A stretch of 13,504 nucleotides of DNA. Source: Candidatus Micrarchaeia archaeon (GTDB lineage: Archaea; Micrarchaeota; Micrarchaeia; Burarchaeales; JAVZCV01). A program made the position numbers and the translations under genes. The DNA is taken from the NCBI GenBank assembly GCA_038874215.1, contig JAVZCV010000027.1, positions 1-13,504 on the forward strand. Reading direction: 5' to 3'. Shown here piece by piece: positions 3 through 10,784 of the stretch (position 1 is its first letter; every line of letters begins with the position of its first letter). Below the pieces are notes generated by a model. It did no database searches. It was given only the letters and a program-made list of their open reading frames with translations, and had not been told where the DNA came from.

Positions 3-824
3 GTTGTTAAAGAGGCTATTGAAAGCATGAAGGAGGGATCCGTTTTCATTGCCGATTCACTCTCCAGTCTTCTCTCTAAGTATGACGAGGGGATATTGGA
101 GGGCATTTCTTATTGGATAGAAAATGCAAAAGGCAAAAGGATAACTACGATTTTCCTTTTTACTAACTGGAATTATCCGCAGGATAGGATAAATAGGATT
201 GCGCGGATGTTTGACTACGTCGTCAACCTGAAAACTGTTGAAGAAAAGGTGCTGCTAAGAAACTATTTTTCTGTGGTTAAAGCGCCGAAAGAGGTATTAA
301 ATGCGAACGTGCCTTTTAGGATAGGGATGGATGGAATTTCAATATACATACCGAAGATACTCGTTACGGGTCCCTTTCACTCTGGAAAATCCACATTCAT
401 ACATAAGGTCAGCGTAAGGGCGGTTTCTGTGGATAGGATGGGCACGACGATAGCGCTTGACCATGGTTATATAGACTATGGGGGTCTGACTGCAGACCTT
501 TTCGGAACGCCTGGGCAGGAGCGTTTTGATTTCATGTTGGATATTCTGAATAAGGACACTTTTGGTGTTGTTTGCATAGTTGACTCAACCAATCCTGGTA
601 CGTTCCAAAGAGCAAAAGAGATGATAGAGCAGGTTGCTGGTTATGGCCTGCCGTATGTTATAGCTGCGAATAAGCAGGATTTAGAAGGTGCCCTCACGCC
701 AGAACAGGTCAGAGCTGAAATGGGATTACCGGAGAATATACCTGTTATGCCGACGGTAGCAACAACGGGCGAGGGTTGCGTTGAATGCGTGAAGAAGTTG
801 ATAGATTTGATAGTAACGCAGTGA
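3..824 (+). CDS. 5'-truncated fusion protein: C-terminal half of a KaiC/RecA-like domain plus MglA/CvnD-type small Ras-like GTPase
   Basis: The frame is open from the window edge (VVKEAIES before ATG 27). The N-part has a Walker B-like FIADS, MFDYVVNL and VPFRIG.DGI, typical of KaiC/RecA C-terminal strands. From ~354 the GTPase motifs are G1 GPFHSGKST, G2 TTIALDHG, G3 FGTPGQERF, G4 NKQD and G5 TVA. Confidence 0.88.
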   Translation, partial: VVKEAIESMKEGSVFIADSLSSLLSKYDEGILEGISYWIENAKGKRITTIFLFTNWNYPQDRINRIARMFDYVVNLKTVEEKVLLRNYFSVVKAPKEVLNANVPFRIGMDGISIYIPKILVTGPFHSGKSTFIHKVSVRAVSVDRMGTTIALDHGYIDYGGLTADLFGTPGQERFDFMLDILNKDTFGVVCIVDSTNPGTFQRAKEMIEQVAGYGLPYVIAANKQDLEGALTPEQVRAEMGLPENIPVMPTVATTGEGCVECVKKLIDLIVTQ

Positions 825-828
825 TTTG

Positions 829-1200
829 ATGACAGAGGAAGTGAAGCTTAAGCTTGAAGAGCTGCTTTCTGAGCTCGCCTCAACGGGAGATATAGAAGCA
901 AGCGCAATCGTGAGGAGAGATGGGTTGATGATAGCATCAAACCTTCCTTCACGGATAGATTCACGCACAATAGCGGCTATGAGCGCTGCCATGGTTGGGA
1001 CTGCAGAAACGTGCTCTTCTGAGTTGCAGAGAGGGAAGTTCATGCAGGTTATTGTGGAGAGCGAGCTGGGTAAGATAATAGCGACGGGTGCTGGGAGGCT
1101 CGCAATTCTCGTGTGCCTTGTAAAGCCGCATGGCAATCTGGGCCTTGTTCTGCTCGCTATGGGCAGGACTGCGAATAAGGTTGCGGCTATGCTGGAGTAG
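829..1200 (+). CDS. Roadblock/LC7 domain protein (MglB-like)
   Basis: ~123 aa with roadblock hallmarks IVRRDGLMIAS, IAAMSAAM.GTAE, VIVES..G, GAG and NLGLV. It lies directly after the GTPase. ATG 829 is preferred over TTG 826. Confidence 0.92.
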   Translation: MTEEVKLKLEELLSELASTGDIEASAIVRRDGLMIASNLPSRIDSRTIAAMSAAMVGTAETCSSELQRGKFMQVIVESELGKIIATGAGRLAILVCLVKPHGNLGLVLLAMGRTANKVAAMLE

Positions 1201-1205
1201 GTTTT

Positions 1206-1439
1206 ATGGTAAATGAGGGCAAGGCTGATGAGATAATAGAGAGGTTTAAGAAGGTAATGGGGCCTGTTGCCAACACGCTCGCCGCAGATGCGGGAAGGGA
1301 GGTAGGGGTGGTGATAATAGATGGAAGAGTGCAGCGAATAGAAAGCGAGGAGCAGTACAAAAAACTCGTTGAAAAACTTAGGGAGAAATTCAGCAGGATA
1401 ATGGGGCCAGCGATTACAGACTCGCTTATAACCGGATGA
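1206..1439 (+). CDS. Small hypothetical helical protein with duplicated E[RK]FxxxMGP motif
   Basis: 77 aa ORF filling the operon gap exactly (5 and 4 bp spacers), GGAG/AGGT upstream, amphipathic helices. Confidence 0.82.
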   Translation: MVNEGKADEIIERFKKVMGPVANTLAADAGREVGVVIIDGRVQRIESEEQYKKLVEKLREKFSRIMGPAITDSLITG

Positions 1440-1443
1440 TGCT

Positions 1444-1818
1444 ATGACTATGATTGAGAGGATGCATGATTACATTAAAAAGAATAGGGATGCAAGGGTC
1501 GACGGCTATGTCGTGGCGAGGAGAGACGGTATTAAATTAGTATCCACGATTGAAGAGTCTCCGCACATATCTGCGATAACAGCCGCCATTATAGGTTCTG
1601 CTGAATCATTCATACAGTCAATGGGCGCAGAGGTAAAAAGCGTTTCTGTTATAATAGAATCCGATAAGCTGAATGCGGTAATGATGGGGGCTGGCACGCC
1701 GATACTTGTCGCTGCAATAGCTAAACCAGGCGTTGAGCTCCACGGGCTTGTTCCGCATGTAAAGAAGCTTGTTGAAGAGCTTTCCAAGATGGTTGAGAAA
1801 GATGGAAGGAAGGAATGA
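1444..1818 (+). CDS. Second, divergent roadblock/LC7 domain protein
   Basis: Aligns by eye with 829..1200: VARRDG, ISAITAAIIGSAE, VIIES, GAG, AKP. Confidence 0.85.
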   Translation: MTMIERMHDYIKKNRDARVDGYVVARRDGIKLVSTIEESPHISAITAAIIGSAESFIQSMGAEVKSVSVIIESDKLNAVMMGAGTPILVAAIAKPGVELHGLVPHVKKLVEELSKMVEKDGRKE

Positions 1819-2536
1819 CGGGGTAACTGTGGGTAGAATAAAAACAGGCATACCCGGACTTGATGAGCTTATCAGTGGCGGCTTTGAAGAAAAGAGCGTG
1901 GTAATAGTTACTGGTCCTGCGGGTTCTGGAAAATCAACCTTGGCATTGCAGTTTCTTTACAATGGCGCAACCGTGTCTGGCGAGCCTGGGATTTACATAA
2001 CTTTTGAGGAGCAGAAAGCCATGCTATACAAACATATGATGAACTATGGATGGGACTTCGCAAAACTTGAGAAGGAGGGGAAATTTAGGCTTTTTGAGTA
2101 TCCTCCGCATGAAGTGGATAGGTTTCTTTCGGAGGGTGGCGCGATAGAAGACTGTATAGAAGAGATGAAGGCGAGGAGGTTGGTAATAGACAGCATAACA
2201 TCATTTATGCTTCTTTATGAGACGGAGTACAAGAGAAGGCAGGCTTTTCTCAACGCGATGCAAACGCTTAGAAAGTGGGGTTGCATGTGCCTCCTGACTG
2301 CTGAGGGGGAAACCGATGCGCATGGCAACGTGACGGCGCGTTTTGGGCTTGAGTTCCTTGCAGATGGGCTAATAGCAATACACATGATAAGGCGCGGGGA
2401 TATACGAGACTTGGCGATAGAAATAGTGAAGCTAAGGGGGATACCCCACCAGAGAAAGCTGAGCCCGATGATGATAACTGAGAGTGGTGTTGTCGTTTTC
2501 CCAAATCAGCCAGTTTTCGGCGAGGCAAAATTTTGA
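1802..2536 (+). CDS. Single-domain KaiC-like/RAD55 family RecA-superfamily ATPase (COG0467-type)
   Basis: RIKTGIPGLDELI.GG, Walker A GPAGSGKS, ITFEE, Walker B RLVIDS, EFLADG and an arginine finger VKLRG. The start is uncertain (ATG 1802 or GTG 1829; TTG 1769 is unlikely). Confidence 0.93.
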   Translation: MEGRNDGVTVGRIKTGIPGLDELISGGFEEKSVVIVTGPAGSGKSTLALQFLYNGATVSGEPGIYITFEEQKAMLYKHMMNYGWDFAKLEKEGKFRLFEYPPHEVDRFLSEGGAIEDCIEEMKARRLVIDSITSFMLLYETEYKRRQAFLNAMQTLRKWGCMCLLTAEGETDAHGNVTARFGLEFLADGLIAIHMIRRGDIRDLAIEIVKLRGIPHQRKLSPMMITESGVVVFPNQPVFGEAKF

Positions 2537-2538
2537 GC

Positions 2539-2554
2539 GGGAAATTTTTATATA
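2539..2554 (+). promoter_or_regulatory. Archaeal BRE/TATA promoter of the minor pilin operon (probably leaderless)
   Basis: GGGAAA followed by TTTTTATATA, ending 22 nt before ATG 2576; no SD present. Confidence 0.7.
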
Positions 2555-2575
2555 GAGAAAAACCAATCCAATAGC

Positions 2576-3289
2576 ATGAGGAAGGCGCAGAGCTCAACAG
2601 AACTCGTAGTCATACTCGCTGTATCGCTGCTCTTTCTTTCAGCCATAGTGATTTTTGCATACAACAACATCAAAAGCCTTGAGGAGATGATGCGTGTTTC
2701 AAAAACAAGGGAAGCGGTAGAAAAAATAGCAGATGCGTGCGAGCGCGTATATTATGCAGGGCTTGGCTCTAGAGAGATTGTAATGATAGAGATTCCATCG
2801 GGTGCTCTCCCTGAAAGAGTGTTCATAAGTGGGAACGTAATAAACATCGGTGTCGGCAGTAATGTCTCATATACGGATATAAACACGCGAGCAAATGTTC
2901 CTGTCATAGGCATTCTGCCAAACACGAGCGGTGTTCATGCGGTTCTCGTTGAGGCTAAGAACGGGTATGTGCGTGTTGGCAACGTTTCTCTTTCCCTATA
3001 CCCCTATTTCATATACGAGAATACGCCTGTAAGAACTTACAGGTACAGGAATATCACTTTGGCAAACTATGGAAAATCAAGGATACGTGTGGATGCACGG
3101 GTAACGGCGAGTTCCTCAAATTTGCAGGTAAGATGCACGCCAACATACGCTTACCTCAATCCAGGACAGAAGGTAAACATGACGCTGAGGTTTTACTCGA
3201 GGCAGGTTGGCTATTACTATGGCTTTGCAAACATAACTGCCAGCAACGGCGAGTGGGAAAAGGTGGATTTTGTGGTTGAGGCGGTTTGA
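2576..3289 (+). CDS. Class III signal peptide (DUF361-like) minor pilin with C-terminal Ig-like domain
   Basis: MRKA|QSSTE followed by a hydrophobic helix; six N-x-S/T sequons; the C-terminal pattern ITLANYG...LNPGQKVNMTL suggests a beta-sandwich. Confidence 0.85.
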   Translation: MRKAQSSTELVVILAVSLLFLSAIVIFAYNNIKSLEEMMRVSKTREAVEKIADACERVYYAGLGSREIVMIEIPSGALPERVFISGNVINIGVGSNVSYTDINTRANVPVIGILPNTSGVHAVLVEAKNGYVRVGNVSLSLYPYFIYENTPVRTYRYRNITLANYGKSRIRVDARVTASSSNLQVRCTPTYAYLNPGQKVNMTLRFYSRQVGYYYGFANITASNGEWEKVDFVVEAV

Positions 3290-3669
3290 TGCGTGCGCAG
3301 GTAAGTGCAGACTTTCTCATCGCAACGGTAATCGCATTCGCTATATTCTCTATCCTTCTCGGGCTGTACGTAACGAGGGTGGGCGTATTTCAGGAGATGG
3401 AGAAGAAAGTTGTCGCGGAAAGAAACGCATACAGAATTGCAGCCGCTATTAATGCGGTTTCGGAGGCACCTGACGGAACCGAGGTTGTGATGCGAATTGA
3501 TTTTGATGAGCCGCACCTAATCCGGTTCGTTGAAAGGCGTGTTGAGATTTTCATGAACAGCACGGGAGATAGCGTATCGGCACCTGTTTTGGCGAATCTT
3601 TCTTTTTACGAGACAGATGCAAACGAGGTGAGGATAGCGAATGAGAATGGGAGTGTTGTAGTAAGGTGA
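3289..3669 (+). CDS. Minor pilin-like protein, class III signal peptide
   Basis: MRA|QVSAD followed by a hydrophobic helix; TGATG overlap with the upstream stop; three sequons. Confidence 0.82.
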   Translation: MRAQVSADFLIATVIAFAIFSILLGLYVTRVGVFQEMEKKVVAERNAYRIAAAINAVSEAPDGTEVVMRIDFDEPHLIRFVERRVEIFMNSTGDSVSAPVLANLSFYETDANEVRIANENGSVVVR

Positions 3670-3673
3670 TTGG

Positions 3674-4117
3674 TTGAGGGGCCAGATGTTCTCCTACGAT
3701 ATAGTGTTCGCAGTTCTTTTGGTTACCGTTCTTCTTGTCGCATCTTTGCATGCATACCAGATGAAGATTTCTGGGTTTTATGAAAGGACAGAGAAGGAAC
3801 GAATTTTTGCATTGGCGAATTCCGCAATATCGCATATCGTGGTTTCTTCGCATGGATGCGGAATCGCGAAAACGCGCAACGTGCTTGATGAAAATAAGAC
3901 AGCGGAGCTTTTCAGCAAGATAAAAAACGATTACAACGAAACAAAAAAGCTTCTTGGTATTGTAGGATACGAGTTCAACATGAGCATTGAAATGATTGAC
4001 GGGAGGACGATTTATAGCGCTGGGAAAGTTGGAGTTGGTAGCGTTGTCGTATCAACAGAGAGATATGGCTTGCTCAATGGAAGCGTTGTGAGGGTGAGGC
4101 TTGTTGTCTGGAAATAG
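3674..4117 (+). CDS. Minor pilin-like protein, class III-like signal peptide
   Basis: TTG start after SD AGGTGAT (3664-3670); MRG|QMFSYD followed by a hydrophobic helix; four sequons. Confidence 0.82.
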   Translation: MRGQMFSYDIVFAVLLVTVLLVASLHAYQMKISGFYERTEKERIFALANSAISHIVVSSHGCGIAKTRNVLDENKTAELFSKIKNDYNETKKLLGIVGYEFNMSIEMIDGRTIYSAGKVGVGSVVVSTERYGLLNGSVVRVRLVVWK

Positions 4118-4460
4118 AAGGGGCTTTGTTTATACATCGGATGCCTTCGTTGCAGTTGCAGTATGCGTCCTTATACTTGCTGCCACTATGAACGTTGATT
4201 TGGCAGGCATGAGCATTGTGGATTATAAGGGTGAGGACCTTGCGACTTTGGCGGAGAAAGGCAGTATGAATGCTACGAGAGTGCTTGTTAGATTTGAGAG
4301 ATGCACGAGCATGCTTGTCAGATGCGAGAACGGCTCAATTCTCTATCCCGTAGATTCTGGATGCATCTGTGAATCATATTCCATTACGAGGAGAAGCCTC
4401 CTTATACAGAATAGGGGCAAGGTTGATGAGTGCTTTGTTGAGGTAATACGATGCAGATGA
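4101..4460 (+). CDS. Cysteine-rich pilin-like protein, class III-like signal peptide
   Basis: TTG start (4101 or 4104) after SD GGGTGAGG; RRG|FVYTSD followed by a hydrophobic helix; six Cys beyond the TM segment. Confidence 0.75.
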   Translation: MLSGNRRGFVYTSDAFVAVAVCVLILAATMNVDLAGMSIVDYKGEDLATLAEKGSMNATRVLVRFERCTSMLVRCENGSILYPVDSGCICESYSITRRSLLIQNRGKVDECFVEVIRCR

Positions 4461-5272
4461 AGGGATTCCTTTTCACGATATTGTTATCGATGCTTTTCCT
4501 ATCGGTTTTCATGTTTGCCGTTTTTTACAGCTCAAATTACGGCGGTGATGAGAGGAATAGGGGGGTAGAGAGAATTTCGTACGTATATGATGATATTTCC
4601 TCAGACATTATGTTTATGCTCGGGACTAATTCAAGCGTTGAAAAAGGGGGCGATTCTTTCAAGGTTGCGTGGGTGTTCTCTATCCCGTCAGAAATACAAG
4701 ACCCAGTAGCAGAATTTAGAGAATATGTCTCTTTCCTGAACAGCTCTTATTCTGAAAAGATTGGGGTAAAAACAACGATTCTGGATGACGCTCTTATAAA
4801 TGCGCCTGAGATTCGTGCGGATGATTTAAGGCTTAGGTATGGGGGTTTGAAAAGGTGGAGCGCACTTTTTTATGCGCCGAGATGCTCATCCCAGAACTAC
4901 TCTCTTGTAATTTATCTTAACGATTCATGCAAGAAAAAGTGCTCTAAATCCGTTGATTATAAATGGGTGGAAGAGGCAGATGGCACGCCTTTCTTCATTA
5001 AGATAGTGGATGCAGATGGCGATGTCGCATTTGGGCAGGACGGAAAAATAAAGCTCGGCAGTTGGGTGTCTGTTGAATTGAAAAAAGGCAGTTTTCTTGT
5101 TTCAACAGCAGAAGAACCAGCCGCATGCGTTTCTCTCGTACCTTCGGGAGAAAGCGGAGCTTGGGTTACGATGAATGTTTCTGCATCTGGCAGTGTCTCG
5201 GGGATTTATGTGCCTCTAGACATAGCAATAGACGGGCAGAGATATGAGAAAATAACGATAGAAGGGATTTAG
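4451..5272 (+). CDS. Pilin-like or membrane-anchored surface protein
   Basis: MKG|FLFT followed by a hydrophobic helix; five sequons. The start is 4451 (after GAGGT) or 4457 (ATGA overlap). Confidence 0.75.
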   Translation: MQMKGFLFTILLSMLFLSVFMFAVFYSSNYGGDERNRGVERISYVYDDISSDIMFMLGTNSSVEKGGDSFKVAWVFSIPSEIQDPVAEFREYVSFLNSSYSEKIGVKTTILDDALINAPEIRADDLRLRYGGLKRWSALFYAPRCSSQNYSLVIYLNDSCKKKCSKSVDYKWVEEADGTPFFIKIVDADGDVAFGQDGKIKLGSWVSVELKKGSFLVSTAEEPAACVSLVPSGESGAWVTMNVSASGSVSGIYVPLDIAIDGQRYEKITIEGI

Positions 5273-5277
5273 TTTTT
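5273..5277 (+). terminator. Possible oligo-T terminator between convergent genes
   Basis: TTTTT is the entire spacer between the two stop codons. Confidence 0.35.
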
Positions 5278-5757
5278 CTACTGGTACTGCCCTACAAGAG
5301 GAAGGCTGCCCGTGAAGGAGTATGTCATCGTGGTGTGCTCTGCATCGCGGTATTTTATTGTTACATCAAGCGAGTATTCCTCGCCTGCTGTACCAGATGG
5401 GTAGTTTGTACCAGAAGTTATATTGACTATTGCAGTATCCCCTGGTTCAAGACGCGTCGGGCTGACAGACTGAACGTTTGCGGGAGCTACACCTATACCA
5501 ATCTGATCTATGTTTATCGGGAATTTCTTGTTGTTTCTGACAATAAGCTGCCCGGCCTCCCCATTCGTGCCTTTTAGGGATGCACCTATAATGGCGACTT
5601 CTGCGACGCTCCAGTATGCATCGCTCTCGGCCTTTGTTACACCTCTCCCTATCCGTGGGAATCCGCCCATGACACCAACGACTATAAGGGCGATTATAAC
5701 TACTACTGCCAATATTATTAGATACTCGGTTGCTGCCTGTGCTCTTTTGAATTTCAT
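5278..5757 (-). CDS. Type IV pilin, probable major pilin (class III signal peptide, DUF361-like)
   Basis: MKFKRA|QAATEYLIILAVVVIIALIVVG with +5 Glu, a beta-rich head and strong SD AAGGAGG. Confidence 0.9.
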   Translation of the reverse strand: MKFKRAQAATEYLIILAVVVIIALIVVGVMGGFPRIGRGVTKAESDAYWSVAEVAIIGASLKGTNGEAGQLIVRNNKKFPINIDQIGIGVAPANVQSVSPTRLEPGDTAIVNITSGTNYPSGTAGEEYSLDVTIKYRDAEHTTMTYSFTGSLPLVGQYQ

Positions 5758-5760
5758 CTT

Positions 5761-5805
5761 ATCCCTCCTTCTCTTAATTCAGCAAGGATATTTTTATATC
5801 TTTCT
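5761..5805 (-). promoter_or_regulatory. BRE/TATA promoter and SD for the pilin gene
   Basis: The minus strand reads AGAAAG-ATATAAAAA (5805-5791), then AAGGAGGGAT (5770-5761) before ATG 5757. Confidence 0.65.
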
Positions 5806-6781
5806 AAACGATGAAGTAGGAGAGCAGGTATTCCTTTATCAGATGGAAGAGGAGAAGCGATGCGGCGAGTATGAGCGGGAAGAACTTTATTCCATTCATT
5901 TTCTTTCCATCATGAACAACTCCAAGGAGCATGCTCGCCATGAGCGAAGTAATTGCGAGGGTTATTAGGGACATGGCGTATACAAAATCTGTGCTGAGAA
6001 CCTTGCCAGGCGCAAGCCCGATTCTCGCCGCCATTTCTGTGCTCATCCCAGACTGCAACGATGAAACTATGCCGATGAATTTTATTGAGACGGCGAGAAG
6101 AAAGGGCATCGCTGCGATTATCGCAAAGAGTATGAAGATCATGTACATTGATGTACCTGCGATCAGTTCTCTTTTCAGCCTTTGCGATTCTTCTATTTCT
6201 TCGGCAAGGCTAACGAGCAACCTTGATATGCTGCCGCCGCTTTTGAGGCTTGTTGCGAAGAGAGAGACGGCCCTTTCAAGAACCTCGGAGTTTATCCTCT
6301 TTGATATTTCAAGGAGTGCTTCGTGAAGGGATGACGTGCCGAGGGACTTCGTTGTCGCATAGCGTATCTCCTCATCAAGAGGGCTGAACTCTGGCCGAGC
6401 TGACATGCGAAGCGCAAGAACGGGAGAAGCGCCTGCATCTATGTTTGATGCAACGAGCCTCAGCAAATCGGGCAGGATAGATTCAACCCTCTTCTTTCTG
6501 TCCTCAATCTCGCTGTGCAGGATTGCGTATCTCACGAAAATAAGGCAGAGGTAAACTAAAAAGCCGCATAGTAGCGCATAGGGAGTTTCTAGATTATAGA
6601 GGCGTGCGATCACGTAGGAAACGATGAAGCCAGCGATCGCTAATAAGAGTGTTTTGCCGACCCATTCTTCCGCGCTCTCGCGCTTTCCTGCATAGTTAAG
6701 CATTTTCTCTGCGGCGTTTATGAAACCCTTCGGAACGAATGAGCCGATTTTCCCTATGAAGGACGCCATTTCATCACGCAT
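5804..6781 (-). CDS. Type II secretion system F family membrane platform protein (TadC/ArlJ-like)
   Basis: ESILPDLLRLVASNIDAG, EFSPLDEEI and SLKSGG motifs, multiple TM helices, located downstream of the ATPase. Confidence 0.92.
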   Translation of the reverse strand: MRDEMASFIGKIGSFVPKGFINAAEKMLNYAGKRESAEEWVGKTLLLAIAGFIVSYVIARLYNLETPYALLCGFLVYLCLIFVRYAILHSEIEDRKKRVESILPDLLRLVASNIDAGASPVLALRMSARPEFSPLDEEIRYATTKSLGTSSLHEALLEISKRINSEVLERAVSLFATSLKSGGSISRLLVSLAEEIEESQRLKRELIAGTSMYMIFILFAIIAAMPFLLAVSIKFIGIVSSLQSGMSTEMAARIGLAPGKVLSTDFVYAMSLITLAITSLMASMLLGVVHDGKKMNGIKFFPLILAASLLLFHLIKEYLLSYFIV

Positions 6782-7661
6782 GTATCACTGGCCTTTTTAT
6801 ACGCACGAATTCTATGAGCACGAATTGGAGCACAAAGCATAGGATGAGAAGTTCTACATAGTGCATTTCGCTTATGCGTATGCCTGCGAAAGAGGAGAGT
6901 ATTATGAGGAGCGTTGTGCCGAGTGTTGGTATTACAACTGCAACCACTACATATATGAGGATCCATAGGTTCATCTCTTGAATATACGTTTTTATCTCAG
7001 AGCTTTGATACTGCTCCATGTTATGGACTATGCTCTGCAGGGCGCCCTGAAGGCTCGCTCCTGCTTTTAGCGTGTTTATTATCTGCCATAGCATCTTTTT
7101 TAGATGCCTGGACTCTGTCCTCAGAGCCATCCGCTCAAGTGCTTCTTCCTGCGATTTTCCTGCACTTATCTCCTGCACCGCTATCTTGAACTCCTTTGAA
7201 ACATCGCCATAGCTTGACTCAGAGATGTTCACCATTGAGTCATAAAGAGAAACGCCTGATGTTATCTGTACCATCATGTCCCTCACTGCATAAACGAGGT
7301 CCTTGTCTATTGCCTCAACCGCTTTGCCTACGAGTATGCGGGGATAAAAGATGAAAACGAAGAAGAAGAGAAGCAGGGAGCCGATAAAGGCGAGGATTAT
7401 GGAGTTATAATCAGTGGTTTTTGTTTTTGCGGGCTTTGCGTATAAGAGTGCGAGCATTAAAATTAATACAAGAAAGGCCCACGCAAGAGCATTGAAGATG
7501 GAGACAACAGCATACTCGCTGCTGTCGTATTTGCTCTTGAGCATTTTTAACTCGTATTTCAACGATGGGAAAAGCGAAGCAATCGGGACGCCGATGCCCT
7601 TAAGCTTGTGCGCAATCTTATCTGAAATCGCAGACGGCACGAGAAAAAGCGGGACTCTCAT
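6774..7661 (-). CDS. Type II secretion system F family membrane platform protein (TadB-like)
   Basis: IDKDLVYAVRDM..QI.SGVSL, YGDVSKEF and EEALERMA motifs; four TM helices; ATGA overlap with the ATPase stop. Confidence 0.92.
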   Translation of the reverse strand: MRVPLFLVPSAISDKIAHKLKGIGVPIASLFPSLKYELKMLKSKYDSSEYAVVSIFNALAWAFLVLILMLALLYAKPAKTKTTDYNSIILAFIGSLLLFFFVFIFYPRILVGKAVEAIDKDLVYAVRDMMVQITSGVSLYDSMVNISESSYGDVSKEFKIAVQEISAGKSQEEALERMALRTESRHLKKMLWQIINTLKAGASLQGALQSIVHNMEQYQSSEIKTYIQEMNLWILIYVVVAVVIPTLGTTLLIILSSFAGIRISEMHYVELLILCFVLQFVLIEFVRIKRPVIHA

Positions 7662-9409
7662 ACCAACCCCTTAAAATCCTCGTCCTTGCGTGCCATCTCC
7701 ACGATGGCATCGGCATTATTGTAGTATGTAGCCATCACTTTGCCGACAGAGTTAATGTCTGTTATTTTTTTCCTAAGCATCCATTCAAGTATCATCTGTT
7801 TTTCCTGCATGTCTTCAGCGAGCTCCTGCTCGCTCATTCCCGTATGCAGGTTCAGCTCATCAAATATCCTTATGCTTCTGTTCATCTTCTCAAACGAATC
7901 TCCTCGCGGGTGCCACTTGTAAAGCCTGTTCAAGGATACCGCTTCTGTTCCTGAGGATAGCACTTCGCTTATCTCATATGTTCTCCTTATTCCCCTTCTC
8001 CTGTCCCTGTACTGCACAACGATTAGGTGGAGGGAAACGAGCTCCTGCGGCGGAAGTTGTATGGGAGCATTAATCAGCCTTCTGAGAGTCTGCTCTGCCG
8101 TGTCTGCGTGCATAGTTGAGTATACCGCATGCCCAGTATGCATCGCCTCAAATAAAACTTCTGCCTCCTCTCTCCTCCTTATCTCGCCCACTATTATCCT
8201 GTCTGGCCTCATTCTAAGGGACGCAACCATGAGGTCAAGCATGCTGACCTGTCCTTTTCCTTCTGGGTTCGGGTTTCTCGTTGTAAGCGGTACCCAGTTC
8301 CATCTTAGGTAATCTGGAAGGTTTAGCTCGCGTGTATCCTCTATCGTAACGATGCGCTGGTGCGATGGGATTAGGGCGCAGAGGGTGTTAAGGGCGCTCG
8401 TCTTGCCGCTTGCAGTCCCTCCCACAACAAGCACGTTCATCTCGTATTGCATGCAGAGCCAGAGGAAAGCCGCAATCTCTGATGAAAACGTGTGTATTTC
8501 GCTTGAAATAAACGAGGTTATCGTCCATGGGGCACGGGCGAACCTCCTTATCGTCAGGGTACACCCGCTCGTAGAAATCGGGAAGAGGGTTGCGCAAACT
8601 CTGTCGCCAGTCACTAGGTGTGCGTCCATTATGGGCTCAAGGAGTGTTATCTCCCTGCCGCTCTTTCTGCCTATTTGCGACGCATAGTTGTATATCTCGC
8701 TTTCGGTTAGTTTGGGGAGGGTTGTTTTAAGCCATCCATATTTCTTGTGGTATACGGCTATGGGGGATGCAGAGCCGTTTATCCCTATTTCTTCTATGTA
8801 ATCGTCAGCCATGAGGAGCTCTATATCACCAAGCCCGTACATCGTATGGAGAAGTATGCCAGCCATCACATCCTTTTCTTTTTCCTCAATTTTTGGGATG
8901 GACTGCGATATAACTTCGGATGCCTTCGTATAGAACCTTTCCTTGAGCTCGCCAGTTTTTCTCTGGTCTATTATCTCTTCGGTTTCAATGGGCACGAGCC
9001 TCGCTATCTCGTCCCGAAGGTGATTCATAAAAACTTCTGTATAAGGTCCTATAACGGGTGATGCAAGATGGTAAAACGGCCTTCCCTCCCCACTAACTTT
9101 TATTATTTCAACAGCCCCCCTCACGTTGTTTGCCTCAACCGAGTATTTCTCAAGGACTTCTCCTTTTGGAGCCTCGACCGTATGCCATGCGAGCCTCTGC
9201 TGCACTCTTATCTGGGGTTTAGAAAGTATATTCGTAGGATATATCAGCGAGACAACGCCATATTCGCTGAGAATTTTGCCTATGTTCTCAATATGGGATT
9301 CGCTTTCGCCGAGCGCTTTTGATATTTCGTCTATGCCCGCACCGCCTTTCTCATAGGCATATTCACATATCCTATCAACTAACGTTTCTATCCTCTTCAT
9401 GCTTGCCAT
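7658..9409 (-). CDS. Type IV pilus assembly ATPase (VirB11/CpaF/ArlI family) with N-terminal winged-helix-like extension
   Basis: Walker A GGTASGKT, Asp box TIEDTREL, Walker B RPDRIIVGEIR, His box MHTGH..STMHA. Confidence 0.95.
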   Translation of the reverse strand: MASMKRIETLVDRICEYAYEKGGAGIDEISKALGESESHIENIGKILSEYGVVSLIYPTNILSKPQIRVQQRLAWHTVEAPKGEVLEKYSVEANNVRGAVEIIKVSGEGRPFYHLASPVIGPYTEVFMNHLRDEIARLVPIETEEIIDQRKTGELKERFYTKASEVISQSIPKIEEKEKDVMAGILLHTMYGLGDIELLMADDYIEEIGINGSASPIAVYHKKYGWLKTTLPKLTESEIYNYASQIGRKSGREITLLEPIMDAHLVTGDRVCATLFPISTSGCTLTIRRFARAPWTITSFISSEIHTFSSEIAAFLWLCMQYEMNVLVVGGTASGKTSALNTLCALIPSHQRIVTIEDTRELNLPDYLRWNWVPLTTRNPNPEGKGQVSMLDLMVASLRMRPDRIIVGEIRRREEAEVLFEAMHTGHAVYSTMHADTAEQTLRRLINAPIQLPPQELVSLHLIVVQYRDRRRGIRRTYEISEVLSSGTEAVSLNRLYKWHPRGDSFEKMNRSIRIFDELNLHTGMSEQELAEDMQEKQMILEWMLRKKITDINSVGKVMATYYNNADAIVEMARKDEDFKGLV

Positions 9410-9429
9410 GCTCTTATTTTTCGTTCTTG

Positions 9430-9446
9430 CTTAAAAAACATTAGCG
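9430..9446 (-). promoter_or_regulatory. Putative BRE/TATA promoter for the ATPase-TadB-TadC unit (T-tract may also terminate tldD)
   Basis: The minus strand reads CGCTAAT-G-TTTTTTAAG, ending ~21 nt before ATG 9409. Confidence 0.55.
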
Positions 9447-10784
9447 TCATTTCCCTGCAACAAAAACATCGGTAAGCCGAATGTGCGGCCCTCCATCGCC
9501 AACATTTATGTGCTTCCCATGCTTACCGCACACTCCAAGGCTGAATGTCCTTTCCTTTCCAAGCCCATCAACGTTGAGGAGGGTTTCAAGGATATTCCCG
9601 CTTATCATCGCATCCCTCAGCCTGCCCCTCAACTCGCCATTTTTAATCTCGTATCCATCTTCTGATGTGAATATGAACTCGCCCGTTTTGGGTGTGACCG
9701 CACCTCCCTGAACCCCGCAGAGATAAACGCCCTCTTTTATGTCTATAAGCTCATCAAACTCCATATCGCCAGCTTCAAAGAATGTGTTGCTCATTCTAAC
9801 TATGGGCATCTCTGCTGCATGCCCCCTCATGTTTCCCGTTGATTGAGTTCCCATGATAGCGGCAGTTTCCCTTGAATGCAAGTATGAATTTAGGATTCCG
9901 CCTTTTACTATATACGTCTTCCAAGCACGCACGCCCTCATCGTCAAAGGCAAAGCCGCCGAAGGCATTGACGAGTATGGGCTCGTCTACTATCGTGACGC
10001 TTTCATCAGCTATTTTTTTGCCAAGCATTCCCACAAAAGCCGATGTTTTCCCAACAACGCTATCCGCTTCCGATGCATGTCCCACTGCCTCGTGCGCAAG
10101 AACGCCCGCCATCTTTCCATCTATAACCACAGTCCTCCTCCCAGCCTTGGGAACGCTTGCATCAAGGAGGGAGATGGCTTTTTCGCGCGTCTCTTTTGCC
10201 TTCTCAAGGAAATTCGCAATCAATTCGTGTCCTCCATGCCCGCCCAACCTTGAAAAACCGTGTGCCATCTTCCCTGCTGATCTTGCAATCGTATAGAAAC
10301 GTATGTAGACGCTTGGCAGAACCTGGAATATCTCCGCACCTTCGGAGCTTAGGAAGGTTTTCTCAACAAAAGCGTCCCTGTATAAAACCGTTCTCGTCTT
10401 TATTCTGCTTTCTTGCATTTCTTTATCCGCTTCCAAAGCGAGCTTAACTTTCTCTTCAACGCACATCTCATACATGGGTCTCTTAGGCTTGATTATGAAC
10501 TTTTCTTTTACAACTTCCTCATCAGAAAGCCGTGCGTTTCCCTTGCCAGCATGTGCAAGCCTGAGCGCTCTTTCAAGCGCATCGGATAGGTTTCGTTCAT
10601 TATTCGTGCTCGCAAATCCCCAGCTTCCTTTATGAAGAACGCGGACGCCAGCCTCCCAGTCGTTCGCCTCAACAACATTCTCAACTTTGCCATCATTTAT
10701 CTCAACGATAACAAAGGAAATGTGTGTTATGCGCACGTCTGCGTAATCTGCTTCGCACGATTGAACGAGGTTTTGCAAATCCAT
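9447..10784 (-). CDS. tldD: TldD/PmbA family metalloprotease, catalytic TldD type
   Basis: YADVR, GVRVLHKGSWGFAS, HEAVGH.SEAD (HExxGH), FDDEG, PIVRMSN, CGK and VGDGGPH motifs. Confidence 0.95.
   Translation of the reverse strand: MDLQNLVQSCEADYADVRITHISFVIVEINDGKVENVVEANDWEAGVRVLHKGSWGFASTNNERNLSDALERALRLAHAGKGNARLSDEEVVKEKFIIKPKRPMYEMCVEEKVKLALEADKEMQESRIKTRTVLYRDAFVEKTFLSSEGAEIFQVLPSVYIRFYTIARSAGKMAHGFSRLGGHGGHELIANFLEKAKETREKAISLLDASVPKAGRRTVVIDGKMAGVLAHEAVGHASEADSVVGKTSAFVGMLGKKIADESVTIVDEPILVNAFGGFAFDDEGVRAWKTYIVKGGILNSYLHSRETAAIMGTQSTGNMRGHAAEMPIVRMSNTFFEAGDMEFDELIDIKEGVYLCGVQGGAVTPKTGEFIFTSEDGYEIKNGELRGRLRDAMISGNILETLLNVDGLGKERTFSLGVCGKHGKHINVGDGGPHIRLTDVFVAGK

Follow-up and report, generated by a model that had tools for sequence, protein, structure and literature searches.

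A KaiC-like ATPase gene joins a GTPase-Roadblock cassette to a type IV pilus locus in a Micrarchaeota genome and encodes a candidate pilus regulator

The window analysed here, a stretch of 13,504 nt that forms the start of contig C27 (JAVZCV010000027.1) of a Candidatus Micrarchaeia archaeon genome (G000; 1.13 Mb, 91% complete), contained two adjoining gene groups. Unit A (positions 3-2536) encodes a small GTPase fused to an inactivated KaiC domain, two Roadblock proteins, a 77-residue protein and a single-domain KaiC-like ATPase. Unit B (2576-9409) is, judged by its gene content, an archaeal type IV pilus (T4P) locus of T4P/Tad-like character. We take the KaiC-like ATPase, from its place in the gene order, to be the hinge between the two units and a dedicated regulator of the pilus. 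Most likely, this ATPase regulates the adjoining pilus, with the GTPase-Roadblock cassette feeding in within families f1, f2, f5 and probably f9.

Loci around the KaiC orthologues, the fusion genes and the pilus ATPase orthologues were retrieved from 29 genomes of the order and from other families of the class, and were annotated by tblastn, Pfam and local hidden Markov models. The class-wide sample comprised 401 genomes. Archaea-wide neighbourhood counts were taken from the best 80 fusion-gene loci, with flanks of up to 10 kb. The window represents family f1. Family f2 includes G001 (locus L015) and its congener G009 (L016), family f5 includes G004 and G014 (L017 and L018), and G005 belongs to f6.

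The full gene order, from the fusion gene through the pilus ATPase to a TldD gene, recurred in three genomes, G001 of f2 and G004 plus G014 of f5: fusion gene, (dead KaiC), Roadblock, 77-residue protein, (Roadblock 2), KaiC, pilin-like genes P1-P5, a convergent P6, TadC, TadC, ATPase and TldD. In G001, an IS605-type OrfB gene was located between KaiC and P1. Since it recurs in other families, the arrangement is beyond chance. In 10 of 17 loci, a P1-like gene directly followed the KaiC orthologue. These ten belong to families f1, f2, f5, f8 and f19, and comprise the window, G001, G004, G014, five genomes of f8, and G040, which is from another order. P1 was missing at this place in the other seven KaiC orthologue loci, those of G009, G020, G017 (2.4 kb available only), G015, G006, G033 and G038. 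The gene 5' of KaiC varied across the KaiC-P1 loci, being Roadblock 2, the 77-residue protein gene or a DUF7504-type dead KaiC.

Family f8 contained neither the GTPase nor a Roadblock (0 of 10 genomes), and a DUF7504-type dead KaiC together with KaiC headed the same pilus locus. The f8 order was dead KaiC, KaiC, P1-P5, convergent TadC, TadC and ATPase; where one contig covered the distance, in three genomes, the ATPase lay 12.6, 13 and 27 kb further downstream. In f3, a more distant KaiC paralogue headed a collinear pilus locus. The component that stays with the pilus is the KaiC-like ATPase, not the GTPase.

The fusion gene was present in nine of the 29 genomes of the order, namely f1, f2 (2/2), f5 (2/3), f6 (1/1) and f9 (3/4); none was found in f8, f7, f3 or f4 among these 29 genomes. 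Class-wide, 20 of the 401 sampled genomes contained the full-length fusion. The fusion gene headed the KaiC-pilus arrangement in four of the nine fusion-bearing genomes. In f9 (named Burarchaeum), three or four pilin-like genes lay directly 5' of the fusion gene on the same strand in all three genomes (L021 10712-12571, L020 5949-7189 and L019 1430-3190); this set differs from P1-P5 of the window. Altogether, pilin-like genes abutted the GTPase module in seven of the nine fusion-bearing genomes. No pilus gene was found near the fusion gene of G005 (f6).

The KaiC-like ATPase carried a Walker A motif (GPAGSGKS), the catalytic Glu-Glu pair (FEE) and a Walker B motif (VIDS), and residues G41, G43, K44, E69, E70, D130 and S131 were invariant in 18 aligned KaiC orthologues. 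These intact motifs and its PF06745 score (Table 1) place it in the active single-domain KaiC family. It is not an ArlH (47.9 bits on the ArlH/FlaH model NF052589, cut-off 215), nor is it a double-domain circadian KaiC (147 bits vs 408 on NF006799; 117.6 bits vs 546 on TIGR02655). Its matches in the PDB were KaiC CI, with an E value of 9e-101, and FlaH 4yds, with 7e-11. In an unrooted tree, 16 KaiC orthologues formed one clade (support 94/88) with the pilus-linked members on several sub-branches, a topology that would fit an old pilus linkage with later losses.

Genome G000 contained 13 KaiC-like genes, one fusion gene and six T2SSE-type ATPases. Another KaiC-like gene overlapped the 3' end of a second pilus-type ATPase by 7 nt (G000:C8:17930-20364; L046 5928-8407). 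This second ATPase is 44% identical to the window ATPase, and the same ATPase-KaiC pair was present in four f7 genomes, as judged by coordinates. In total, four of the 13 KaiC-like genes of G000 were located within 10 kb of a T2SSE gene vs 10.7% of the genome (rough binomial P 0.04); two of these four share one ATPase.

The original prediction had described Unit A as a tightly packed operon of a KaiC-like::GTPase fusion, a Roadblock, an MGP protein, a second Roadblock and a KaiC-like ATPase. All five genes were present in those places, on the plus strand, either separated by 1-5 nt or overlapping by 17 nt. The fusion itself was confirmed, with the corrections that its gene is cut by the contig end and that the fused KaiC domain is inactivated, and the KaiC-like gene is better started at ATG 1802 than at 1769 as first proposed. 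Because the window begins at the contig end, gene 1 is without about 113 N-terminal residues. Contig C4 starts with a KaiC-like fragment, which was considered as the missing N-terminus of gene 1 and rejected, since its Walker A motif is intact and its alignment was poor. Unit A is the Micrarchaeota version of a widespread archaeal signalling cassette.

Full-length orthologues of the fusion protein (n = 8) were 388-398 residues long. In all eight, the aligned Walker A motif of the KaiC domain was degenerate, and this inactivated domain of about 225 residues preceded the GTPase, which is thus not a single-domain enzyme. The GTPase motifs were G1 GPFHSGKS, G2 GTT, G3 GTPGQ and G4 NKQD. According to the available sections of Wuichet and Sogaard-Andersen (2015; PMC4316618), MglA proteins of groups 2-5 have GTPGQ, a Thr in place of the arginine finger, and an Asp-Gly pair in the coupled MglB. 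Each of these features was found in Unit A: DLFGTPGQERF was invariant in nine of nine aligned sequences, both Thr residues of the G2 motif R-[LM]-G-T-T were invariant, so that Thr replaces the group 1 arginine finger, and both Roadblocks contained the Asp-Gly pair (RDGL in Roadblock 1, RDGI in Roadblock 2). The GTPase and Roadblocks therefore bear out the MglAB-like character that had been proposed for them. The best solved relatives of the GTPase were Thermus MglA (3t12; E 1.8e-9) and Arf1 (4.7e-9).

In the PDB, Roadblock 1 matched solved archaeal Roadblock proteins (9jue; 3.7e-19) and the conservon protein CvnB5 (3leq; 3.4e-8), and its orthologues adjoining a fusion gene shared 75-80% identity. 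Roadblock 2 is about 30% identical to Roadblock 1 by tblastn; its orthologue at L015:8124-8483 scored 30 bits on PF03259 (cut-off 23). The only other Roadblock-like sequence in G000 was located on contig C33 (L049 4807-7998, minus strand) and is 39% identical to Roadblock 1. It forms the C-terminal end of a 1063-residue open frame with a signal- or lipoprotein-like N-terminus, which would be an uncommon fusion provided that the frame represents a single gene.

The 77-residue protein has 37 relatives in a collection of 5.8 billion clusters, all named ones being Micrarchaeota/Burarchaeum, and 28 clusters among 1.84 billion representatives; from these searches, the family appears restricted to Micrarchaeota. 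Its structural model (AlphaFold2, mean predicted local distance difference test score 95.8) consisted of four helices and a beta-hairpin. No Pfam or NCBIfam family matched the protein, DUF742 (Pfam) included. A Foldseek search of the PDB with the model returned nothing at E <= 0.001, the weak top rows being an H-NOX N-terminal subdomain and Af1502, and a wide VIA-align search gave a best Z of 6.8, inside the stated noise of that tool. A sequence-profile search of the PDB gave no credible match, and scores in the ESM Atlas did not exceed 0.82, with one structural PatA_N (PATAN) cluster row in which the aligned part lay outside PatA_N. Two longer, weak relatives had helix-turn-helix matches, at sub-threshold level only. 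In f14, a homologue of the 77-residue protein was located between Roadblock and KaiC; because the same order occurs there too, Roadblock, small protein and KaiC form a unit of their own. A 783-residue divergent T2SSE-like gene about 5 kb from this f14 unit was not counted as linkage, since housekeeping genes intervene.

Table 1. Features of the window (KaiC gene start as revised; positions in nt from the start of contig C27).
Feature	Position	Strand	Evidence and remarks
KaiC-like C-terminal part + small GTPase fusion	3..824	+	PF06745 E 7e-4, below cut-off; TIGR00231 55.8 bits (cut-off 42.5); Arf 44.9 bits
Roadblock 1 (Roadblock/LC7, MglB-type)	826..1200	+	PF03259 56.9 bits (cut-off 23); RDGL
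77-residue protein	1206..1439	+	motifs MGPVA and IMGP; no family
Roadblock-like protein 2, divergent	1444..1818	+	PF03259 16.8 bits, below cut-off; RDGI
Single-domain KaiC-like ATPase, 244 residues	1802..2536	+	PF06745 192.5 bits
Spacer, 39 nt	2537..2575		TATA-like box 2545-2554, ends 21 nt before P1 ATG
P1, prepilin-like, 237 residues	2576..3289	+	MRKA/QSSTELVVILAV...; homologues directly 3' of KaiC orthologues
P2, prepilin-like minor pilin, 127 residues	3286..3669	+	weak ComGG-type pilin match, E 0.0017
P3, prepilin-like minor pilin, 147 residues	3674..4117	+	homologues in L017, L018, L033
P4, prepilin-like minor pilin, 119 residues	4101..4460	+	class III-type start
P5, prepilin-like, 273 residues	4451..5272	+	homologues in L015, L025, L033
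P6, candidate major pilin, 159 residues	5278..5757	-	MKFKRA/QAATEYLIILAVVV...; PF04021 class III signal 19.3 bits, below 23.7
TadC/PilC-like platform protein a	5804..6781	-	PF00482 52.6 bits (cut-off 25.2)
TadC/PilC-like platform protein b	6774..7661	-	PF00482 60.2 bits (cut-off 25.2)
PilB/FlaI-type T2SSE ATPase	7658..9409	-	PF00437 120.7 bits
TldD-type metalloprotease	9447..10784	-	37 nt between TldD stop and ATPase start
587-residue open frame, runs off contig end	11741..13504	-	no Pfam or NCBIfam family

The pilus locus was present as originally described, with six pilin-like genes, two TadC-like genes and one ATPase, 39 nt after the end of the first operon. Its PilB/FlaI-type ATPase, TadC/PilC-type platform proteins and class III substrates together identify a T4P locus. 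All six pilin-like products began with a class III (prepilin) signal, comprising a short basic stretch, [KR][GA] and a hydrophobic helix; P6 alone had a Pfam match, below the cut-off. P6 has its own A/T box at 5791-5798, and orthologues that are 43-47% identical to it adjoin TadC. The sole prepilin peptidase of the genome (PF01478, 45.3 bits, cut-off 26.5) was located outside the pilus locus, at G000:C2:63451-63774. The window ATPase is not the archaellum motor, scoring 280 bits on the FlaI/ArlI model (cut-off 550), and the TadC-like proteins scored about 33 bits or less on the ArlJ models (cut-offs 550-570). A true ArlI (689.5 bits) and ArlJ (575.8 bits) were encoded on contig C2, where the archaellum is separate.

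The TATA-like box noted earlier in the spacer is real, and all 10 of the 10 orthologous loci had an equivalent A/T box that ends 18-21 nt ahead of the P1 start codon. The pilin operon probably has its own promoter, as had been suspected. The geometry of archaeal TATA boxes and leaderless transcripts underlies this assignment, and the spacer is a probable promoter of a leaderless pilin operon, with an oligo-T stretch that may possibly act as a stop for the upstream operon. A scan for sigma-70 promoters and intrinsic terminators, unsuited to an archaeon, found sites that were fewer or no more numerous than in shuffled sequences.

The fusion family comprised at least 1362 proteins at E <= 1e-10 among 8000 candidates scored. 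In species-representative genomes, 272 fusion loci were found, in Methanoperedens, Methanocellales, Archaeoglobaceae, Altiarchaeota, Aenigmatarchaeota and others. Of the best 80, 70 had a Roadblock within 3 kb, 62 had a DUF7504-type dead KaiC and 55 had both. Two of these loci, L094 and L103, had linkages to pilus genes outside the order, and no tree backs their independence. L094 (Archaeoglobus) contained, on one strand, a T2SSE ATPase, TadC, a pilin-like gene, dead KaiC, the fusion gene, Roadblock and KaiC. Overall, the trio is a general archaeal cassette, and its pilus link is lineage-specific but recurrent.

Locus L103 (8-11215), from a record filed as 'Nanoarchaeia', contained a pilin, two TadC genes and a T2SSE ATPase on one strand, and a diverging KaiC, two pilin-like genes and the fusion gene. 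The gene set is that of the window, rearranged, and the genome is filed under a DPANN phylum other than that of the window; the L103 KaiC lies outside the orthologue clade.

Several observations weigh against a dedicated link between module and pilus. A T2SSE ATPase was found in the flanks of just five of the best 80 fusion loci (four of the 33 loci whose flanks reached 5 kb or more on each side), which is near the expected background, and three of these five were close relatives of the window, the other two being L094 and L103. In other Micrarchaeia families (f14, f12, f23 and f6) the trio was located among housekeeping genes, its neighbours including primase, GINS, eIF2-alpha, an ABC transporter and PrsW. 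Pilus loci occurred with no GTPase in f7, f8, f3 and f4, and the f7 pilus locus also had no KaiC upstream, the f7 KaiC orthologue adjoining CDC48. The KaiC orthologues of f7, f9 and f14 had no pilins 3'. Genome G009 kept the whole module while the pilus block from P1 to the ATPase was gone; the best G009 ATPase shares just 50% identity with the ATPase of the G001 pilus locus and is therefore a paralogue. A conserved promoter-like box of its own precedes P1, and the pilin genes therefore need not be co-transcribed with Unit A. Finally, the KaiC-like ATPase is, by its profile matches, far closer to KaiC CI than to ArlH. The neighbourhood survey put forward with the original prediction thus gave a divided result: the linkage is kept among relatives, with KaiC next to P1 in most orthologue loci, is absent in G009 and f7, and is mostly absent across archaea.

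The IS605-type OrfB gene in G001 suggests that the region is recombination-prone. At G009:C45 (L016) 36-2195, the counterpart of window positions 2537-9446, TldD abuts KaiC, and the two convergent stops are about 15 nt apart.

Known systems resemble parts of this arrangement. In Myxococcus xanthus and Thermus thermophilus, a small Ras-like GTPase gene likewise lies beside its Roadblock partner(s) (MglA/MglB, and SofG); unlike MglA, the window GTPase is archaeal, is fused to a dead KaiC domain and has KaiC-like ATPases rather than RomR/RomX or Frz as partners, and unlike group 1 MglA it has neither the intrinsic arginine finger nor TVPGQ. The ArlH (FlaH)/ArlI pair, too, consists of a single-domain KaiC-like ATPase and the ATPase of a type IV filament, encoded together; the window proteins differ in that neither passes its respective archaellum model and the archaellum genes are elsewhere in the genome. 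CirA of Haloferax volcanii is also KaiC-like, and its gene adjoins type IV filament genes that it regulates, but those of the archaellum cluster, with no GTPase or Roadblock there. The actinobacterial conservon is an operon with the same logic, encoding a sensor NTPase, the Roadblock CvnB, the small protein CvnC and CvnD, a GTPase of MglA type. The window differs from it in being archaeal, in having KaiC-family proteins instead of a CvnA-type histidine kinase, and in having no DUF742 (CvnC) domain among the five products.

The genomic association between such genes and pili has been published. In the available sections of Makarova, Koonin and Albers (2016; PMC4858521), KaiC-family ATPases of arCOG01171, arCOG01174 and arCOG01175 are strongly associated with T4P systems, and the Roadblock arCOG02603 often lies within T4P loci. 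The supplement of that survey includes two Methanobacterium genomes in which clade 1 pilins precede a Roadblock, a protein of about 390 residues and a KaiC-like protein of about 235 residues, the middle protein being labelled a RAD55-type ATPase in one genome and an SR-beta-like GTPase in the other (PMC4858521). By size and labels alone, this is the same trio. The same sections give no G-protein-switch reading of these T4P loci and report no experiment there; they contain no DPANN/Micrarchaeota genomes, no 77-residue protein, no second Roadblock and no hinge role for an active KaiC. For archaeal group 4 MglA, no conserved neighbours are described in the available text of Wuichet and Sogaard-Andersen (2015; PMC4316618). 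A literature search found no study of the module by experiment or as a G-protein switch for a pilus, in agreement with the earlier statement that no experimental characterisation exists. A 2017 mBio article on KaiC-like hubs by Makarova, Galperin and Koonin reportedly defined the inactivated KaiC (iKaiC), and may include the iKaiC-GTPase fusion. Since the general association is already in print, the gain here is a sharper hypothesis, not a new class of system.

Taken with its gene order, the module is a reasonable candidate regulator of the pilus, and we lean towards some functional control of the pilus by it. In such control, the Roadblock dimer would set the GTP/GDP state of the GTPase. The GTPase would then dock, via its dead KaiC domain, on the KaiC-like ATPase and change the nucleotide, phosphorylation or oligomer state of that ATPase; a role of the dead KaiC domain as a docking piece for KaiC-family partners is plausible. 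In the last step, the KaiC-like ATPase would either bind the pilus ATPase, as ArlH binds ArlI, or change expression of the pilin operon, as CirA does for the arl genes. Available sections of the literature report that ArlH autophosphorylates and that its state controls ArlI binding. By this analogy, the protein-protein route is a tentative choice for how control would be exerted, and the expression route would be a less probable one. A more specific version, in which the GTPase enters, via its dead KaiC domain, a mixed ring with the active KaiC-like ATPase, the ring docks on the PilB/FlaI-type motor, and Roadblock-driven GTP/GDP switching gates pilus assembly as a kinase-free G-protein relay, is speculative and on balance rather unlikely. 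If such a relay were true, it could time the host attachment of a DPANN cell, and it would be the first known post-translational control mechanism for an archaeal pilus, comparable in function to the MglA/SofG control of type IV pili in bacteria.

The two units may instead be neighbours only, with Unit A serving as a general signalling cassette with other or many outputs and the gene order inherited with no dedicated link. This would account for the 75 of 80 trio loci across archaea that have no T2SSE ATPase in the flank, for the trio amid housekeeping genes in other Micrarchaeia families and for the separate promoter-like box of the pilin operon; some proximity is also expected from 13 KaiC-like genes in one genome. 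It sits less well with a KaiC-P1 pair that is kept in five families though its upstream neighbours vary, with the f9 pilin-like genes that abut the other side of the module, with the further linkages in L094 and L103, and with the enrichment of KaiC-like and Roadblock genes in T4P loci in the available sections of the published survey (PMC4858521). We regard a mere neighbourhood as somewhat unlikely; it stays a substantial rival because of G009, f7 and the archaea-wide survey.

Two further explanations accept a functional link and differ in its nature. With its state set by the GTPase and the Roadblocks, the KaiC-like ATPase could alter transcription of the adjacent pilin operon like CirA, never touching the motor ATPase. 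The conserved partner of KaiC is indeed the promoter-bearing spacer and the first pilin gene, with the ATPase 5 to 27 kb off by family, and deletion of CirA, in the sections of the published work available, caused hypermotility and raised arlA1, arlI and arlJ transcripts. However, Pfam and NCBIfam scans found no DNA-binding domain among the five module proteins, the mode of action of CirA is itself unknown according to the same sections, and the translational coupling of another G000 KaiC paralogue to a pilus-type ATPase favours protein-protein action; pure expression control is judged unlikely. A spatial switch, in which a cell site such as the host-contact face is marked by the GTPase and the pilus machine is recruited to it or positioned at it in the manner of MglA/MglB and SofG, is more doubtful still and in our view improbable. 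The MglA/MglB-type signatures and the Thermus MglA match speak for it, as does SofG, which positions PilB and PilT in Myxococcus (available sections of PMC4316618). Against it, the GTPase has neither the group 1 arginine finger nor the TVPGQ of the polarity MglAs, no polarity MglA has such a fusion to a dead KaiC, the Pfam and NCBIfam scans revealed no RomR/RomX-like or membrane-targeting element, and localisation is beyond the reach of sequence.

To our knowledge, little is known of how archaeal type IV pili are switched on and off, and we know of nothing on the control of DPANN attachment structures. Under the preferred reading, in which the KaiC-like ATPase regulates the pilus, the locus and its relatives provide an ordered set of candidates: GTPase, Roadblocks, KaiC-like ATPase, and then the pilus ATPase or the pilin promoter. 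They also provide natural comparisons, namely between families in which KaiC occurs alone, families that have the entire module, and a single genome with the module and no pilus block. The trio is present in Methanoperedens, Methanocellales, Archaeoglobaceae and, from the published table, Methanobacterium, and biochemistry is therefore feasible with better-studied archaea.

Some further observations concern genes around the two units. TldD adjoined the pilus ATPase in f1, f2 and f5, and adjoined KaiC in G009. Beyond TldD, the window contained RNase Z and then the 587-residue protein. In f8, a conserved 215-residue protein was encoded about 2-3 kb upstream of the KaiC pair (L023 6727-7374; L033 3805-4455). 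It had Pfam LIM-domain matches (1.4e-13 and 2e-12, with no single stretch passing) and a double zinc ribbon, and its gene adjoined a PadR-type regulator.

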